DNA of 64,000 nt, from sequence record MH355584.1; one strand, written 5' to 3'. Below are positions 29,763 through 39,413 of this stretch, in pieces (positions within the stretch are counted from its first letter, which is position 1; each line of letters begins with the position of its first letter). The position numbers and the translations under genes were made by a program. Under the pieces are notes generated by a model that saw only the letters and a list, made by a program, of their open reading frames with translations, was not told where the DNA came from and did not search any database. Source of the DNA: Escherichia phage vB_EcoM_JB75.

Positions 29763-30447
<685 letters not shown>

Positions 30448-30456
30448 TTTCACAAA

Positions 30457-30498
30457 GTTGTTTACATACTGATGAGGTAGTGATACTATTACCTCATC
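30457..30498 (+). promoter_or_regulatory. T4-type early promoter with dyad-embedded -10
   Basis: TTTCACAAAGTTGTTTACAT with -35-like GTTTAC, then GATGAGGTA-gtgatactat-TACCTCATC (perfect 9-bp inverted repeat around the -10). Confidence 0.6.
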
Positions 30499-30520
30499 AA
30501 AATTAATTAGGAAAATAAAA

Positions 30521-30778
30521 ATGAAAACTTTCAAAGAGTTTGCTACAAAAACTACTATCACTGAATCTTCCCATGGTATGGAAGTAAAGCTTGGAATGGC
30601 TTTAGCTGAAGCTGAGCGTCTTTTCTCTCGTATTAAAGAACTTGCTGCTGCGGTCGATCCTTCATCTTTTAAAGGAGACCAAACTAAAGTTAAAGCACTT
30701 TTAGCATTATGCTCCGATGCAGGAGAAATTGCTAAAAATGGTTCTAAGATGAAGAAACGATTAGAAGATTTAAAATAA
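30521..30778 (+). CDS. internal-protein-like small protein with capsid-targeting-like N-terminus
   Basis: 85 aa; N-terminus MKTFKEFATKTTITE resembles the T-even IP capsid targeting sequence with a gp21-type ITE cleavage site; own early promoter. Confidence 0.6.
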   Translation: MKTFKEFATKTTITESSHGMEVKLGMALAEAERLFSRIKELAAAVDPSSFKGDQTKVKALLALCSDAGEIAKNGSKMKKRLEDLK

Positions 30779-30787
30779 TTTCACAAA

Positions 30788-30828
30788 GTTGTTTACATAG
30801 GGTTTTAGTTGTGATACTATTACCCTAT
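30788..30828 (+). promoter_or_regulatory. T4-type early promoter with dyad-embedded -10
   Basis: Same TTTCACAAAGTTGTTTACAT block; ATAGGGT ... gtgatactatt ACCCTAT. Confidence 0.6.
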
Positions 30829-30854
30829 CAAAACAAAACCAAATGGAAATCAAA

Positions 30855-31088
30855 ATGAAAACTTACCAAGAATTTATTGCTGAAACTGCTGATGTAAAAG
30901 TTGAGTTTATTTACTCTGGCAAGAAAGATAAAATGGGTGAAATGCCTCATGGAGTTCTTCGTGATGCATTAGATAATTTCGGTCAACTCGCCGCAGAAGA
31001 TTACGGTGATAAAATTGTTGTTACTGGTCCTGCTGCAGTTATTGAAAAATGGGCAGCAGAAAATAAATCAATTTTTCGTAAAAAATAA
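30855..31088 (+). CDS. internal protein (CTS MKTYQEFIAE)
   Basis: Track ORF from 30843; the ATG at 30855 gives MKTYQEFIAE, the canonical T4 IP capsid targeting sequence; own promoter and SD. Confidence 0.7.
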   Translation: MKTYQEFIAETADVKVEFIYSGKKDKMGEMPHGVLRDALDNFGQLAAEDYGDKIVVTGPAAVIEKWAAENKSIFRKK

Positions 31089-31128
31089 GTTTACTTTTAG
31101 ATAGGGTAGTGATACTATTACCCTATCT
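31086..31128 (+). promoter_or_regulatory. T4-type early promoter with dyad-embedded -10
   Basis: GTTTAC then AGATAGGGTA-gtgatactat-TACCCTATCT (perfect 10-bp inverted repeat). Confidence 0.6.
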
Positions 31129-31146
31129 ACTACTGAGGAGAATAAA

Positions 31147-31332: not shown

Positions 31333-31730
31333 TGAACGTTGAATATTATGTATATGCGGATTACGAAAATAATCCGTCTAAAGATGAAGATAATCGTTTA
31401 GGTGTAGATGCTTTCGATTCCCCTGCGGCGGCATGGCAATGGGTTGAAAGAACCGATATTCCTTACCGTTATATTGAAGTGGTTGACCACGCAGGAAACA
31501 AGTATCCTAAGGAAGCATATGTTGCTTCCGGGAAGGTAAATTTCCTTTTGTTTGCAGGTGATAATTATTATCCCCGTGGTGGGTATACCGATTTAATTGC
31601 TAAAGCATTCTCTGAAGATGAACTCCGTGACATTATCAAAGAAAATGAAAACAAACCGATGGATTCTAATCGCTTTGATTGGTGGCAAATCGTAAATGCT
31701 AATACTCACACTATTGTTGATGAAGGCTGA
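31332..31730 (+). CDS. hypothetical protein
   Basis: 132 aa ORF, ATGA overlap with upstream gene. Confidence 0.5.
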   Translation: MNVEYYVYADYENNPSKDEDNRLGVDAFDSPAAAWQWVERTDIPYRYIEVVDHAGNKYPKEAYVASGKVNFLLFAGDNYYPRGGYTDLIAKAFSEDELRDIIKENENKPMDSNRFDWWQIVNANTHTIVDEG

Positions 31731-31732
31731 TA

Positions 31733-32020
31733 ATGATTCTTTATGCGAAAGTATCATCCATTGAAAATGGATATAAATATGATCAAGACGCGGCTAAAGC
31801 TTTGATTGATGATTATGGCATTTTAACCTGTTTTGAAGTTGAAAAGGTTTACATTGACCGTTCATCTTCTCAAGTTAAATTAGTGAAGGAAGACCGCAAA
31901 TTTAATACAGTAAATTTTGATTTCTTTATTGAAACAGAAAAAGGTCCTCTTGAATATGATATTTTCAAGAATCCTTTGGGTCTTGAATGTATCGTAAATA
32001 CGTATTATCATAAATGGTAA
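31733..32020 (+). CDS. hypothetical protein
   Basis: 95 aa ORF in operon context. Confidence 0.5.
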   Translation: MILYAKVSSIENGYKYDQDAAKALIDDYGILTCFEVEKVYIDRSSSQVKLVKEDRKFNTVNFDFFIETEKGPLEYDIFKNPLGLECIVNTYYHKW

Positions 32021-32117
32021 ATATGCTTTAAGAATTATTTGTTATTATTAACTCATACCGCACTGATTAATACCCTCTATCATTAGGGGTTCTTGTTAGA
32101 GAGCCTTTGTTAATAAT

Positions 32118-32190
32118 TGGGAATTAGCCAAGTTGGTAAGGCATAGCACTTTGACTGCTAGATGCAAAGGTTCGAGTCCTTTATTCCCAG
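32118..32190 (+). tRNA. tRNA-Gln (anticodon UUG)
   Basis: Cloverleaf by eye: acceptor TGGGAAT/ATTCCCA, anticodon arm TAGCA-CTTTGAC-TGCTA, T-loop GGTTCGAGTCC. Confidence 0.8.
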
Positions 32191-32191
32191 C

Positions 32192-32278
32192 GCGAGAATG
32201 GTCAAATTGGTAAAGGCACAGCACTTAAAATGCTGCGGAATGATTTCCTTGTGGGTTCGAGTCCCACTTCTCGCACCA
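32192..32278 (+). tRNA. tRNA-Leu (anticodon UAA)
   Basis: Acceptor GCGAGAA/TTCTCGC, anticodon loop CTTAAAA, long variable arm, encoded CCA. Confidence 0.8.
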
Positions 32279-32283
32279 AATTT

Positions 32284-32357
<74 letters not shown>

Positions 32358-32367
32358 ATTTAATTTA

Positions 32368-32441
32368 CTCCGTGTAGCTCAGTTTGGTAGAGCGTCTGCT
32401 TTGGGAGCAGAATGTCGTAGGTTCAAATCCTGCCACGGAGA
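32368..32441 (+). tRNA. tRNA-Pro (anticodon UGG)
   Basis: Acceptor CTCCGTG/CACGGAG, anticodon arm TCTGC-TTTGGGA-GCAGA, T-loop GGTTCAAATCC. Confidence 0.8.
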
Positions 32442-32443
32442 CT

Positions 32444-32533
32444 GGAGGCGTGGCAGAGTGGTTTAATGCACCGGTCTTGAAAACCGGCAGTCGCTCCGGC
32501 GACTCATAGGTTCAAATCCTATCGCCTCCGCCA
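32444..32533 (+). tRNA. tRNA-Ser (anticodon UGA)
   Basis: Acceptor GGAGGCG/CGCCTCC, anticodon loop CTTGAAA, long variable arm, encoded CCA. Confidence 0.8.
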
Positions 32534-32538
32534 GTTTT

Positions 32539-32614
32539 GCTGATTTAGCTCAGTAGGTAGAGCACCTCACTTGTAATGAGGACGTCGGCGGTTCGATTCC
32601 GTCAATCAGCACCA
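32539..32614 (+). tRNA. tRNA-Thr (anticodon UGU)
   Basis: Acceptor GCTGATT/AATCAGC, anticodon arm CCTCA-CTTGTAA-TGAGG, encoded CCA. Confidence 0.8.
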
Positions 32615-32615
32615 A

Positions 32616-32690
32616 GGCCCTGTAGCTGGAAGGTTCAAGCAAGCGACTCATAATCGCCAGATGGTGGTTCAATTCCACCCAGGGCCACCA
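32616..32690 (+). tRNA. tRNA-Ile/Met (anticodon CAU; T4-type tRNA-Ile reads AUA after modification)
   Basis: Acceptor GGCCCTG/CAGGGCC, anticodon loop CTCATAA, T-loop GGTTCAATTCC, encoded CCA. Confidence 0.7.
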
Positions 32691-32703
32691 AATTAAGAAT
32701 TAA

Positions 32704-32790
32704 GGGGAGTTATCCCGTAGAGGTAGCGGTGTGGACTGTAAATCCATTGTCATTGCGACTCGGGTGGTTCGACTCCATCACTCCCCACCA
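32704..32790 (+). tRNA. tRNA-Tyr-like (anticodon GUA), long-variable-arm type
   Basis: Acceptor GGGGAGT/ACTCCCC, anticodon arm GTGGA-CTGTAAA-TCCAT, variable arm, T-arm GGTGG-TTCGACT-CCATC, CCA; D-arm is weak so it could be a variant or pseudo-tRNA. Confidence 0.55.
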
Positions 32791-32794
32791 ATTT

Positions 32795-32869
32795 GGATGT
32801 GTAGCTCAGTGGTAGAGCAGTTGACTGTTAATCAATTGGTCCATGGTTCGAATCCATGCATGTCCGCCA
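32795..32869 (+). tRNA. tRNA-Asn (anticodon GUU)
   Basis: Acceptor GGATGTG/CATGTCC (two GU pairs), D-arm GCTC-AGTGGT-AGAGC, anticodon loop CTGTTAA, T-arm CATGG-TTCGAAT-CCATG, CCA. Confidence 0.7.
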
Positions 32870-32873
32870 AATA

Positions 32874-32949
32874 CGAGGCATAGCTCAGAAGGAAGAGCAA
32901 GGACCTTCTAAGTCCTGGGTCGTAGGTTCGATCCCTACTGCCTCGACCA
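32874..32949 (+). tRNA. tRNA-Arg (anticodon UCU)
   Basis: Acceptor CGAGGCA/TGCCTCG, anticodon arm AGGAC-CTTCTAA-GTCCT, T-arm GTAGG-TTCGATC-CCTAC, CCA. Confidence 0.8.
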
Positions 32950-33049
32950 GACAAGAAGCCGGGTCGCTACCGGCAAGTCGTCGGACTGATGTTCCCTGTT
33001 TAAGGACTGGTATTAATAAATCTTTATGTTTTGTTAATGTCCCCTTATA

Positions 33050-33225
33050 TCACAGCAGAAACGGCGCACCGAATTATCGATTCGAGGAAATATCTTTGCC
33101 GTAAGCCGAGTAGCGTTTTTGACGGAACGTTCGGATATGGTCGAGATATGGCCTTTTAAAAATATTGAGTAGCGTCAACTGCTTAATAACCGGGTTCGAA
33201 TCCCGGCGTTTCGTACAAACACTTG
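33050..33225 (+). ncRNA. candidate small stable RNA with tRNA-like T-arm (possible counterpart of T4 species 1/2 RNAs)
   Basis: Non-coding stretch after tRNA-Arg containing CCGGG-TTCGAAT-CCCGG with flanking AGAAACG/CGTTTCG complementarity about 150 nt apart; ends at a terminator. Confidence 0.35.
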
Positions 33226-33265
33226 CCTTAGCAGGTGGAACCCCGACAAGGTTGCCGCAAGGCTT

Positions 33266-33293
33266 AGCCCCGACCGAAAGGTTGGGGCTTTTT
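33266..33293 (+). terminator. rho-independent terminator (copy 1 of a duplicated element)
   Basis: AGCCCCGACC-GAAA-GGTTGGGGCT followed by TTTTT. Confidence 0.7.
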
Positions 33294-33339
33294 AGTATAA
33301 ATAAGTATATTAAAACCCCGAATTAAAACAGGAAATAAG

Positions 33340-33813
33340 ATGAAATCATATGCTCAATTTTTAAATGAAGCGGTGTTAAATGAAGCATCTAGCACCGAAA
33401 TTCAAGCTGTCGCAAAAGCAGCCATTGCAGCGGGTAAATATTCCTATAAAGATGCTTCTGACGAATCACGATTCCAATTTGCTCGCGACATGAAAGCAGA
33501 AGGATTTACGGGAAATGCAGTTAGTATGGCCTGGAAAAGTCTAGTTGCTACTGGCGCTGCTTTTGCAAAGGCTTCGGGTAAACCTGCTCCTAAAGCAGAT
33601 CCTAAAGCGGCACAAGAAAAAAATATCGTTAAAGGAATTATCGCTAAATATGAAGCTATCCTTAAAGAGCTTTTAGTAATCAAAACCGAAGGCCAAAAGT
33701 TAGCCCGTGCTTATAGTTTCAAAGATAATCCACATGTTCACTCTCTTGAGTATGTTGAAGACATCCAAAAAATTATTAAAGACCGCATTTGGTCTGCTAA
33801 ACAAATCAAATGA
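33340..33813 (+). CDS. internal-protein-like protein (CTS-like MKSYAQFLNEA)
   Basis: 157 aa, Ala/Lys-rich; CTS-like N-terminus with LNE cleavage motif; flanked by identical terminators. Confidence 0.6.
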   Translation: MKSYAQFLNEAVLNEASSTEIQAVAKAAIAAGKYSYKDASDESRFQFARDMKAEGFTGNAVSMAWKSLVATGAAFAKASGKPAPKADPKAAQEKNIVKGIIAKYEAILKELLVIKTEGQKLARAYSFKDNPHVHSLEYVEDIQKIIKDRIWSAKQIK

Positions 33814-33820
33814 CATTCTT

Positions 33821-33848
33821 AGCCCCGACCGAAAGGTTGGGGCTTTTT
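33821..33848 (+). terminator. rho-independent terminator (copy 2, identical)
   Basis: Same hairpin and T-run immediately after the 33340-33813 gene. Confidence 0.7.
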
Positions 33849-33938
33849 AGTTTGAATCACATAGAGAATGCTGCTACGGATAGTAACAAAGTAATAAATA
33901 ATTAATAACCAACCGATAAATTATTTCAAGGATTTTAA

Positions 33939-34502
33939 ATGAAAACCTATGCCGAATTTTTAACCGAAGCAGCAAAATTACCATCTGAAGCAGATCTTAC
34001 TAAAGTATTCTTCCAATTGGACCCAAAAGACCGCGGCGATTTTCTTAAGTGGAAAGCTAAAGCTATTGAAATGTACAACATCGATAATAGTTCTTTTACA
34101 ATGAGTCAAGAAAATAAATTCAATAAAGCATTTTTCAAAATTTCTAAGAAATTGGCATCTGGCGCTCAGGTTCCTAAATCTGTGTTAGCTACTCCTGAAC
34201 GCGCACCTGTTAAAATTTCTAAGAATATGTTCGACACTAAAAAATACGTTAATGCTTTGAATAAAGCTCTTGATGCATTGGATGATGCAAAGAAGGCAGC
34301 CCGCGATCTTCAAGACGTGTACACCGATTTTGACCGCAAAACTAAAGGTTCTATTTCAAATAGCGAACGCAATAGTGTAAGTGTTTATTCTGATAGCCTT
34401 GATGTTCTTGGCGATGCGTATACTGAAATTAAAAATCGTATTAACACTGCATCTAAGCTAAAAGCTGCTGCAGAAGCTATAATAACTAAACTAGGTAAAT
34501 AA
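33939..34502 (+). CDS. internal-protein-like protein (CTS-like MKTYAEFLTEA)
   Basis: 187 aa; CTS-like N-terminus with LTE cleavage motif; terminator follows. Confidence 0.6.
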   Translation: MKTYAEFLTEAAKLPSEADLTKVFFQLDPKDRGDFLKWKAKAIEMYNIDNSSFTMSQENKFNKAFFKISKKLASGAQVPKSVLATPERAPVKISKNMFDTKKYVNALNKALDALDDAKKAARDLQDVYTDFDRKTKGSISNSERNSVSVYSDSLDVLGDAYTEIKNRINTASKLKAAAEAIITKLGK

Positions 34503-34510
34503 TTTTAAAT

Positions 34511-34536
34511 CCCTATCTAAATGATAGGGCTTTTTG
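34511..34536 (+). terminator. rho-independent terminator
   Basis: CCCTATC-TAAAT-GATAGGG followed by CTTTTT. Confidence 0.6.
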
Positions 34537-34663
34537 GTATCTAGGCCTTTCTGGACCTCTCTAGGCATCATTTAGTTTATACCCTTTATAATATATTATC
34601 CTATCCTTTAATTGCCCATCCCTGCCCTAGAATTCCCTAAAAATTTTTTCACAAAACTGTTTA

Positions 34664-34692
34664 CATCTCTGTTCTTCCATGGTACTATACAA
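34664..34692 (+). promoter_or_regulatory. T4-type early promoter
   Basis: TTTTTTCACAAAACTGTTTACAT ... TGGTACTATACAACTATC. Confidence 0.55.
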
Positions 34693-34731
34693 CTATCAAC
34701 TACTGATACAGAAAACAACTTGGAGAATGAA

Positions 34732-34995
34732 ATGGATAATTACGGCGAACTGTTCAACTTCTTTATGAAATGCGTTTCAGAAGATTTCGGTCGTACAGTG
34801 AATGATATTAAAGTTATCGGTCCTGAACATCCGATGTTTGAAACTTACGCAGTAATGGGTAATGAAGACGGTCAGTGGTATACTGTAAAGGTTGTGATTA
34901 ACATGTTCACTGCTGAAAGTTATGTTAAACTGTCTTCTAAAGTTTACCATGATAACGACGAAATCGCTGAAGAATATTTCAATAATATGAAATAA
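34732..34995 (+). CDS. hypothetical protein
   Basis: Track ORF 34612-34995 runs through the promoter; ATG at 34732 behind GGAGAA gives 87 aa. Confidence 0.5.
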   Translation: MDNYGELFNFFMKCVSEDFGRTVNDIKVIGPEHPMFETYAVMGNEDGQWYTVKVVINMFTAESYVKLSSKVYHDNDEIAEEYFNNMK

Positions 34996-35027
34996 GTTTA
35001 CATAGGTTCATGATTGAGATATTATGA
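34994..35027 (+). promoter_or_regulatory. T4-type early promoter
   Basis: AAGTTTACATAGG ... GAGATATTATGA. Confidence 0.5.
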
Positions 35028-37882: not shown

Positions 37883-38851
<969 letters not shown>

Positions 38852-38886
38852 AGTTGTTTACTTTCTCCTAGAATTGTGATAGTATA
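38852..38886 (+). promoter_or_regulatory. T4-type early promoter
   Basis: AGTTGTTTACTTT ... TGTGATAGTATATT. Confidence 0.5.
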
Positions 38887-38939: not shown

Positions 38940-39413
38940 ATGAAAACATATCAAGAATTTATCACTGAAGCAGCTATTAATTCTCAAATTATTGCTGAAT
39001 CTTTTACTGATCTTTTGAAATTTAAAAAAGGTCAAAAAATTACTGCTGTATTGGATGATGGTACAGAAGTTGAGATGGATGTACAGGGATATAATTATGC
39101 AGTAGATGGAAAACTGTATAATAAATCTCATGCTAAATTTGATTCATTTGACGACTTTGTTAATACAGTTGAAGATGAAAAAACTCGTCGATCCATTGCA
39201 ACTGGTGATGCTAAGGTTCTTATGGCACATGGTCATGAACGCATTCGCGCTAAACAGAATAAAATGGGTGAAGATAATTTTGCATTAGTTGGTTATCAAT
39301 CTGGTAAACAAACTTATGGCTATCAACGTACTGCTACAATGTATAATAAAAATGGTAAAATTGCCTTTGTAAATAGTAAAGGTTCTATTCAGTACGTTAA
39401 ATCGTTCAAATAA
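38940..39413 (+). CDS. internal protein (CTS MKTYQEFITEA), in the ipIII position
   Basis: 157 aa; canonical CTS with ITE cleavage site; early promoter upstream. Confidence 0.7.
   Translation: MKTYQEFITEAAINSQIIAESFTDLLKFKKGQKITAVLDDGTEVEMDVQGYNYAVDGKLYNKSHAKFDSFDDFVNTVEDEKTRRSIATGDAKVLMAHGHERIRAKQNKMGEDNFALVGYQSGKQTYGYQRTATMYNKNGKIAFVNSKGSIQYVKSFK

Follow-up and report, generated by a model that had tools for sequence, protein, structure and literature searches.

Why should a T4-like phage carry the same strong terminator twice, on either side of one small gene? The question is raised by the interval between rnaC and gene e.8 in Escherichia phage vB_EcoM_JB75 (sequence record MH355584.1), of which a stretch of 64,000 nucleotides (nt), hereafter called the window, was analysed. 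The window is part of a Tequatrovirus (T4-like) genome, the closest record being LF73P1 (99.5% identity over 1.7 kb). A 34-nt sequence that is predicted to terminate the tRNA operon occurs there twice, around a gene of 157 amino acids (aa) called gene 1 in the following; a second small gene, gene 2, lies downstream. The answer proposed here is that recombination between terminator copies leads to loss and gain of insulated gene cassettes in the rnaC-e.8 slot. This reading is supported by genome comparison, and a probability of about three in four is given to it.

Two copies of one terminator around a single gene

The 34-mer CTTAGCCCCGACCGAAAGGTTGGGGCTTTTTAGT was found at exactly two sites of the window, 33263-33296 and 33818-33851, both on the plus strand and with 0 mismatches. 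No third site appeared in the 64 kb when up to three mismatches were allowed, and 100 dinucleotide-preserving shuffles produced 0 matches. The copies are direct repeats with a spacing of 555 bp around the open reading frame (ORF) 33340-33813; 43 nt separate the end of copy 1 from the ATG of gene 1, and 4 nt its stop codon from the start of copy 2. At the left end the identity stops sharply (aagg before CTT in copy 1, catt before CTT in copy 2), and to the right a likeness of 38/40 extends beyond the 34-mer (AGTATAAAT in copy 1 versus AGTTTGAAT in copy 2). A preliminary description of this DNA had reported two identical 34-bp copies flanking the gene, which exact alignment confirmed at 34/34 positions. 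Its coordinates for copy 1 (33263-33296) and for the gene (33340-33813, a 157-aa ORF) are correct; the second copy, placed there at about 33825-33858, is in reality located 7 nt further left.

In the fold of each copy, a stem of 10 bp is closed by the loop GAAA, and five T stand directly behind it (-20.3 kcal/mol, z = -5.2). Sequence scan and fold thus gave for both of them a GC-rich hairpin with a U-run directly after it at the end of a transcription unit, as in intrinsic terminators. Both are predicted strong rho-independent terminators, copy 1 ending the RNA operon and copy 2 the gene-1 transcript. The features of the slot are as follows (window positions; basis in brackets).

33263..33296, plus strand: repeat copy 1, predicted terminator of the tRNA/rnaD/rnaC operon (exact 34-mer, terminator scan, fold)
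33266-33275/33280-33289, plus strand: stem of copy 1, with GAAA loop 33276-33279 and T-run 33289-33293 (terminator scan, fold)
33296..33303, plus strand: T4-type late promoter TATAAATA, sharing one base with the end of copy 1 and located 36 nt ahead of the gene-1 ATG (exact motif)
33330-33335, plus strand: Shine-Dalgarno sequence AGGAAA of gene 1 (sequence)
33340..33813, plus strand: gene 1, the bracketed cassette gene, 157 aa, leader MKSYAQFLNE followed by A (ORF; phrog_2280 at 1.7e-60)
33818..33851, plus strand: repeat copy 2, predicted terminator of gene 1, stem-loop 33821-33844, T-run 33844-33848 (exact 34-mer, terminator scan)
33893..33900, plus strand: putative gene-2 promoter AATAAATA (7/8 match to the late-promoter consensus; stretch kept upstream of gene 2 in relatives)
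33939..34502, plus strand: gene 2, the second cassette gene, 187 aa, leader MKTYAEFLTE followed by A (phrog_2280 at 2e-53)
34511..34535, plus strand: terminator B CCCTATCTAAATGATAGGGCTTTTT after gene 2 (terminator scan, fold, third member of repeat family D3 at 65% identity)

The late promoter adjoining copy 1 is kept in most relatives that bear gene 1. Directly after copy 2 stands TTTGAATC, which matches the late-promoter box in 5/8 positions and looks like a decayed form of it. A promoter scan of the plus strand from 33000 to 34600 gave zero sigma-70-like sites. Upstream of gene 2, where neither an exact TATAAATA nor a sigma-70-like site was found, AATAAATA is the sole candidate promoter.

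In T4, the same hairpin TTAGCCCCGACCGAAAGGTTGGGGCTTTTTGG stands after the rnaC trailer, and e.8 follows after about 200 nt with no gene between; the rnaC-to-e.8 interval of T4 (284 nt) is gene-free. Compared with T4, the window holds two extra units. The first consists of the late promoter, gene 1 and terminator copy 2, the second of gene 2 and the distinct terminator B, which has only GGGCTTTTT(G)GTAT in common with the 34-nt repeat. Beyond it T4-like sequence (GGTATCTAGGCC...) resumes, and what follows terminator B (GGTATCTAGG...) is the sequence that follows the single terminator in T4.

Presence and absence of the cassettes in related phages

The slot was read in 33 loci, in a survey mainly of GenBank phage records (a scan of IMG/VR with e.8 gave 10 loci). 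All four presence/absence states of genes 1 and 2 exist in sequenced relatives, and every breakpoint is located at a terminator.

Neither gene (5 loci): T4, T2, T6, PST and BCPShso_001; one terminator copy
Gene 1 only (5 loci): 4E10, Ozark, C2-3 and two IMG/VR contigs; two copies, with T4-like downstream DNA directly after
Gene 2 only (6 loci): Shfl2, LF73P3, P922, Killian, HY03 and CHD94UKE2; one terminator copy
Both genes (8 loci): the window, fPS-90, SsoM_113, TH09, phiE142, Pu-Krd-SF4 and two IMG/VR contigs; two copies

The possibility, raised with the preliminary description, that all relatives carry the bracketed gene in the same context is therefore not what was found, T4, T2, T6, PST and BCPShso_001 being without gene 1. 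Gene 2 is gained or lost independently of gene 1, as it stands alone in Shfl2, LF73P3 and others. Database searches found gene 1 in 494 and gene 2 in 164 records (approximate counts). Since the two-copy layout recurs in hundreds of independently sequenced phages, it is no assembly artefact.

The junctions expected from loss of a cassette were built synthetically and searched for. The gene-1-deleted junction consists of the rnaC trailer, one repeat and the sequence upstream of gene 2, one repeat unit having been removed from the window. It occurs in nature in one piece with 96-99% identity, in 59 records at a coverage of at least 80%; among the matches listed, 15/15 were single-piece. The empty-site junction was found at 100% and in one piece in BCPShso_001. 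The junction from gene 1 to T4-like downstream DNA gave about 276 records at a coverage of at least 80%. As searches with 100-nt junctions merge pieces up to about 550 nt apart, the empty-site (250) and gene-1-only (276) counts at this coverage mix single-piece and joined matches; the gene-1-deleted count and the per-gene counts are reasonably clean.

Such precise breakpoints would also be produced by a dedicated site-specific recombinase with the repeat as its attachment site, and it has been speculated by Krisch and colleagues that GGGG...CCCC stem-loops are perhaps bound by a specific protein (PMC2839356). No recombinase gene is linked to the slot. A dispersed element of the MITE or REP kind should occur elsewhere, but the 34-nt element is confined to the slot, with 2 sites in 64 kb at up to three mismatches and 694 places in 583 records, about 1.2 per record. 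The dispersed-element reading was rejected because the repeat is found nowhere else in the window, and this explanation as a whole, recombinase included, is very improbable.

Allele boundaries and identity of the copies

A single left-flank haplotype (0-1% divergence) is associated with all four states, in IMGVR_b, C2-3, T2 and HY03. Between conserved terminator copies, divergent alleles of gene 1 are found, with about 77% nt identity. Three loci (L005, L028 and L007) match the window at 90-100% (for the most part 97-100%) as far as copy 1; directly past it the identity is 43-57%, and towards the 3' end of the gene and copy 2 it returns to 83-97% (for the most part above 90%). The allele replacement is bounded by copy 1, and the divergence, as aligned, is a mosaic boundary at the repeat.

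The terminator itself varies in nature, with the stem variants GACC/AGCC, the loop variants GAAA/AAAA and a variant TTCC; AGCC is found in copy 1 of some phages and in copy 2 of others. Because stem and loop variants occur, function does not force the copies to be identical. Genes 1 and 2 are only remotely related and yet the copies are 100% identical, so that copy identity is recent, the result of a new insertion or of conversion.

It was considered whether the repeats are passive, an optimal hairpin having been selected twice and the cassettes moving by recombination in the flanks, possibly with SegB co-conversion from the tRNA cluster. The flanks are indeed 96-100% identical among phages, segB lies about 1 kb upstream in many relatives, and PMC4122927 cites a preferential inheritance, driven by SegB, of the tRNA region. 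Flank recombination reshuffles existing states, however, and cannot make gene-1-deleted and empty junctions that end exactly on the repeats. Although the hairpin tolerates changes, copies within a genome are often identical; the 34/34 identity spans the unpaired flanking bases CTT and AGT, and in Dhakavirus the copies share lineage-specific changes. Presence of segB showed no association with the state among the sampled loci. Passive repeats are for these reasons quite an unlikely explanation.

Counterparts in Dhakavirus and Mosigvirus

In the Dhakavirus JS98, a gene for a 184-aa membrane protein has on either side the element GGCCCTTCCGAAAGGTTGGGCCTTTTT(T)GTATAAATA, a version of the terminator peculiar to this lineage together with a late promoter. 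In IME08 the 184-aa gene is missing and the element occurs once; its left flank is that of JS98 copy 1 and its right flank that of JS98 copy 2. The comparison of JS98 (locus L011, 2570-3240) with IME08 (locus L033, 1630-1700) reads as a clean loss or gain of the predicted membrane-protein gene. Since the JS98 protein has no capsid-targeting leader, the slot is not limited to genes of the internal-protein (IP) kind.

In other Dhakavirus-like loci, a gene-1 homologue, the 184-aa gene and a gene for a 205-aa leader protein stand in varied order between copies of the same terminator, and in locus L009 copies that are identical over 31 nt enclose another block, of two genes. The Dhakavirus copies have lineage-specific changes in common, including one compensatory pair. 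In Mosigviruses, one lone copy of the same terminator is followed either by a gene-1 homologue or by a gene for a 206-aa protein.

The cassette genes and their products

The leaders of both cassette proteins contain an (L/I)-x-E cleavage motif followed by Ala, comparable to MKTYQEFIAE followed by A in T4 IPII and IPIII; 8/12 residues of the gene-2 leader match T4 IPIII. The start MK[ST][YF]xxF is found in 5/162 window ORFs of at least 50 aa. The other three belong to the two classical IP loci, and the PHROGs that they match carry the annotation of internal head or virion proteins. Gene 1 was called internal-protein-like in the preliminary description, and this agrees with the N-terminal leader and the late promoter, the two features that make it a candidate internal (injected) head protein.

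Both genes match phrog_2280, which is labelled 'unknown function', and both are annotated merely as hypothetical, even in genomes where IPs are named (IME08, PST). Homologues of gene 1 are confined to T4-like phages. A Pfam search of its protein gave sub-threshold noise only. The AlphaFold2 model is all-helical, with a disordered linker rich in Pro, Ala and Lys, and is of moderate quality (pLDDT 74, pTM 0.44).

A few observations were made on the genes along the way. In Pu-Krd-SF4 (locus L028, 1879-2340), the gene-1 allele is frameshifted into ORFs of 93 aa and 98 aa, still between two terminator copies, and looks like a pseudogene. Gene 2 contains an internal direct repeat of 23 nt (83% identity, 34128-34150 and 34203-34225) that encodes a repeated ...KISKK/KISKN... 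stretch. Yersinia phage PST IpIV matches another window ORF, 38940-39413 (157 aa, leader-bearing, MKTYQEFITEAAINSQ...), directly after the lysozyme gene e. The genes ipII and ipIII are absent from this e-adjacent locus, and the IP repertoire of the window is completely unlike that of T4. The idea that gene 1 is PST IpIV moved between IP loci, suggested by the equal length of 157 aa, was rejected, as BLASTP found no similarity.

Direct comparison of genes 1 and 2 by BLASTP and hhalign detected only the leader. A 205-aa leader protein from the same slot at the Dhakavirus locus L008 matches both of them (E = 3e-10 and 2e-8). By the common PHROG and this bridging homologue, genes 1 and 2 are remote paralogues; they retain about 25% amino-acid identity. 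The whole arrangement might hence be the relic of an ancient tandem duplication of a unit of leader gene and terminator, in which the genes diverged as duplicates and the terminators were inherited. Membership of both genes in phrog_2280 with the 205-aa intermediate as link, and their adjacent position in the same orientation with a terminator after each, agree with such an origin. Against it, about 25% amino-acid identity of the genes contrasts with 100% identical terminators, so that copy identity is recent, and the hairpin after gene 2 is a different one. A duplication may explain the origin of the array, yet it leaves the identical repeats and the four-state polymorphism unexplained, and as an account of the locus it has little probability.

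A model for cassette exchange at the terminator

In the proposed model, the variable slot between rnaC and e.8 would hold zero, one or two cassettes. A cassette unit would consist of a late promoter, a Shine-Dalgarno sequence, a leader-bearing gene and a terminator; it would be transcriptionally insulated and bounded by 34-bp direct repeats. In the window, the late promoter adjoining copy 1 is expected to drive gene 1, and copy 2 to end its transcript. By homologous exchange between the two copies, a single unit of exactly 555 bp would be lost, perhaps in the form of a small circle. If a resident terminator recombined with one borne by a cassette, the cassette would be inserted and the terminator would end up in two copies, much as in Campbell-type integration. 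Within a lineage, the likeness of the two copies would be maintained by these exchanges or by gene conversion. The ancestral linker may have been the terminator together with the adjoining late promoter, repeated between the cassettes of an array. The leader would probably direct the cassette proteins into the head, the prohead protease would cleave them behind L-x-E, and they would enter the host together with the DNA; by analogy with T4 Ip1-3 their likely role would be to block a host restriction system.

Exchange of cassettes by homologous recombination had already been put forward in the preliminary description; this part now draws on the natural junctions, the four states and the allele boundary, evidence that is comparative throughout. 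A number of points weigh against it. The support for terminator-mediated exchange is purely comparative, and the scattering of states over haplotypes does not by itself implicate the terminators. A length of 34 bp is short for efficient homologous recombination in T4. The reciprocal product of unequal exchange, a tandem duplication of gene 1, was not found in any of the 494 gene-1 records. Ordinary recombination in the flanks (rnaC, e.8) during mixed infections could move cassettes without repeats; together with SegB co-conversion it may help to spread the states, but it cannot create repeat-bounded junctions. With regard to the proteins, BLASTP of the cassette products against T4 IPI, IPII and IPIII, PST IpIV and the other IPs of the window gave likeness in the leader only, and Foldseek of the gene-1 model against the PDB gave nothing below E = 1. 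The leader is the single feature that suggests their packaging and injection.

Furthermore, the sequence shared by the two ends of the gene-2 cassette amounts to no more than a 9-nt microhomology (GGGCTTTTT), from which it follows that not all events in the slot need long repeats. This microhomology is located at terminator T-runs, as would be expected from replication slippage (copy-choice), where the polymerase stalls at a hairpin, the nascent strand realigns on the other copy and the unit is deleted: the same anatomy and outcome by other enzymology. The 34-bp direct repeats are short, each with a palindrome of -20 kcal/mol, and GGGC-associated deletion endpoints, of which the 9-nt sequence is reminiscent, have been reported in T4 (Mosig 1998, as summarised in PMC2839356). 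Slippage accounts for deletions, but not for insertion or for allele replacement between the same repeats, and it leaves unexplained why the same lineage-specific variant stands at both Dhakavirus positions. It is therefore considered unlikely as the main process, and recombination between terminator copies is the reading retained here.

Genomic setting of the slot

The slot is framed by the following features.

32118..32949, plus strand: ten tRNA genes (Gln, Leu, Gly, Pro, Ser, Thr, Met, Tyr, Asn, Arg) (ARAGORN, Rfam tRNA matches, T4 annotation)
32951..33215, plus strand: homologues of T4 rnaD (species 2) and rnaC (species 1) (collinear with and 95-100% identical to the annotated T4 region)
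34660..34995, plus strand: right-hand conserved anchor, early promoter TTTACA-N17-TACTAT at 34660-34688, then e.8 at 34732-34995 (promoter scan, identity to T4 e.8)

Copy 1 is predicted to end a transcription unit of which the tRNA cluster forms the upstream portion. The 3' end of rnaC is located at about 33215, where the anchor GGGTTCGAATCCCGGCGTTTCGTA ends, and the internal boundary between rnaD and rnaC is approximate. In a search of Rfam over 31500-35000, tRNAs alone reached the gathering score; sub-threshold matches look like noise, and rnaD/rnaC and the terminator were left uncovered. The rnaD/rnaC homologues (32950-33262) gave no Rfam match even at E <= 1, and these stable RNAs appear to have no Rfam family. 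Three more small hairpins are present in the rnaC trailer ahead of the terminator.

The window has 10 tRNAs and is without the homing-endonuclease gene segB, T4 has 8 tRNAs and segB. The cluster is variable in relatives, some of them having a His tRNA, others truncated or HNH-type endonuclease genes. An ORF of 351 nt is located between tRNA-Arg and rnaD in many relatives (SsoM_113, Shfl2, T2, C2-3, 4E10 and others; for example L003 1106-1456, L015 1883-2233, L027 1152-1502). It is missing from the window at about 32950, and this indel is the reason for the two-piece matches with about 366 nt extra in relatives.

Comparison with known systems

The closest published counterparts are the PeSL and PmSL elements (Arbiol et al. 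2010, PMC2839356; Comeau et al. 2014, PMC4122927). These are short composite elements with a terminator stem-loop, repeated in the intergenic spaces of a hyperplastic region. As here, they flank variable non-essential ORFs, the endpoints of indels between close relatives fall within them, and a cassette has its own promoter and terminator; exchange between flanking copies is proposed to result in excision (as a mini-circle) or insertion. For PeSL elements, mini-circles and deletions were shown experimentally, with excision via the flanking copies (Arbiol et al. 2010, PMC2839356). In contrast to PeSL, which carries an early sigma-70-like or T4-early promoter, and PmSL, with a Mot-box middle promoter, the 34-nt repeat has no -35/-10 boxes and adjoins the late TATAAATA; the term 'late promoter' is absent from both papers. 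Unlike PeSL, the slot repeat is confined to one slot and not dispersed, and its GC-rich stem-loop is predicted to be a strong terminator, at which the tRNA operon would end as well. In the window, the two copies are identical in the terminator part only, JS98 having kept terminator and late promoter in both. Thus the 34-nt element resembles PeSL in the way it works without belonging to that type, as an early promoter is missing, the copies keep to a single slot and the stem-loop is a strong predicted terminator.

The repeats of the T-even IP loci (Repoila et al. 1994, as described in PMC2839356 and PMC4122927) were proposed to shuffle the IP repertoire between related phages. The slot repeat resembles them, as far as these accounts go, in flanking polymorphic leader-bearing internal-protein genes. 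In the same accounts they differ from it by T4 early promoters and weak AT-rich stem-loops; moreover, rnaC-e.8 is neither of the described IP loci and is empty in T4. The mechanism proposed for T-even IP loci, to which the preliminary description had appealed, consequently holds in part: shuffling between flanking copies fits, but the published elements are based on early promoters, and here a strong terminator beside a late promoter takes their place.

Elements of the classical type were found in the window as well. At its ipI locus, a repeat of ~71 nt is present in three copies (30432-30502, 30763-30833 and 31061-31131, the latter two with 86% and 63% identity to the first). It comprises a T4-early-type promoter (GTTTACA-N17-GATACTAT) whose -10 box is covered by a stem-loop. 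The copies stand on either side of two small genes for internal proteins, 30521-30778 (phrog_3499) and 30855-31088 (phrog_8111), and a fourth, partial copy is located at 38850-38885, ahead of the IpIV-like gene. By their make-up, these repeats look like the published PeSL-type IP-locus elements. With such elements also present in the window, both kinds of linker would therefore coexist in one genome.

The IPs of T4 are described at two loci, and Ip1, Ip2 and Ip3 of T4 are inhibitors of three different GmrSD type IV restriction enzymes, one for each (PMC12373910). The cassette proteins resemble T4 IPI, IPII and IPIII, and the named Ip4-Ip13, in a leader MK(T/S)(Y/F)xxF(I/L)xE followed by Ala, in being small, non-essential and polymorphic, and in a predicted late promoter. 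Unlike the named IPs, the products of genes 1 and 2 have no sequence similarity past the leader and are known here from sequence alone. No description of rnaC-e.8 as an IP-like locus was found in the literature, an earlier one (e.g. in Repoila 1994) not being fully excluded.

A wider parallel exists to integron cassettes and to the 'morons' of lambdoid phages, single genes with their own expression signals that are added or removed at a fixed site with the neighbours undisturbed; the comparison was also drawn by Arbiol et al. (PMC2839356). Unlike integrons, the slot has neither an integrase nor an attC site, and general homology is what the proposed exchange would depend on. Unlike what is proposed for the present cassettes, morons are not thought to move through flanking regulatory sequences.

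Implications

A more far-reaching view would make rnaC-e.8 a third injected-protein locus of T-even-type phages. In at least two genera, Tequatrovirus and Dhakavirus, the tRNA-operon terminator (and late promoter) would then be an integron-like docking site at which late anti-defence cassettes are taken up, rearranged and lost. Its copies would be kept identical in each lineage by ongoing exchange, possibly by a process targeted at GGGC-containing hairpins in addition to general recombination. This is a speculative and rather doubtful extension of the reading given above.

To specialists, the mechanism itself would be unsurprising, and the locus is a clear but rather ordinary example of modular gene shuffling; the value lies in the candidate proteins and the test system and not in a new principle. 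The use of a terminator with a late promoter would show that the principle of cassette shuffling is independent of early promoters. With four states and both junctions available in isolated phages, and with short and defined repeats, the slot is a clean natural test system for the shuffling of regulatory cassettes. At a site that is not annotated as an IP locus, it adds two candidate families, both of them members of phrog_2280, to which Dhakavirus and Mosigvirus contribute a third. Because T4 internal proteins inhibit GmrSD type IV enzymes (PMC12373910), the new leader-bearing proteins are direct candidates for anti-defence functions and for host-range determinants in therapeutic T4-like phages.

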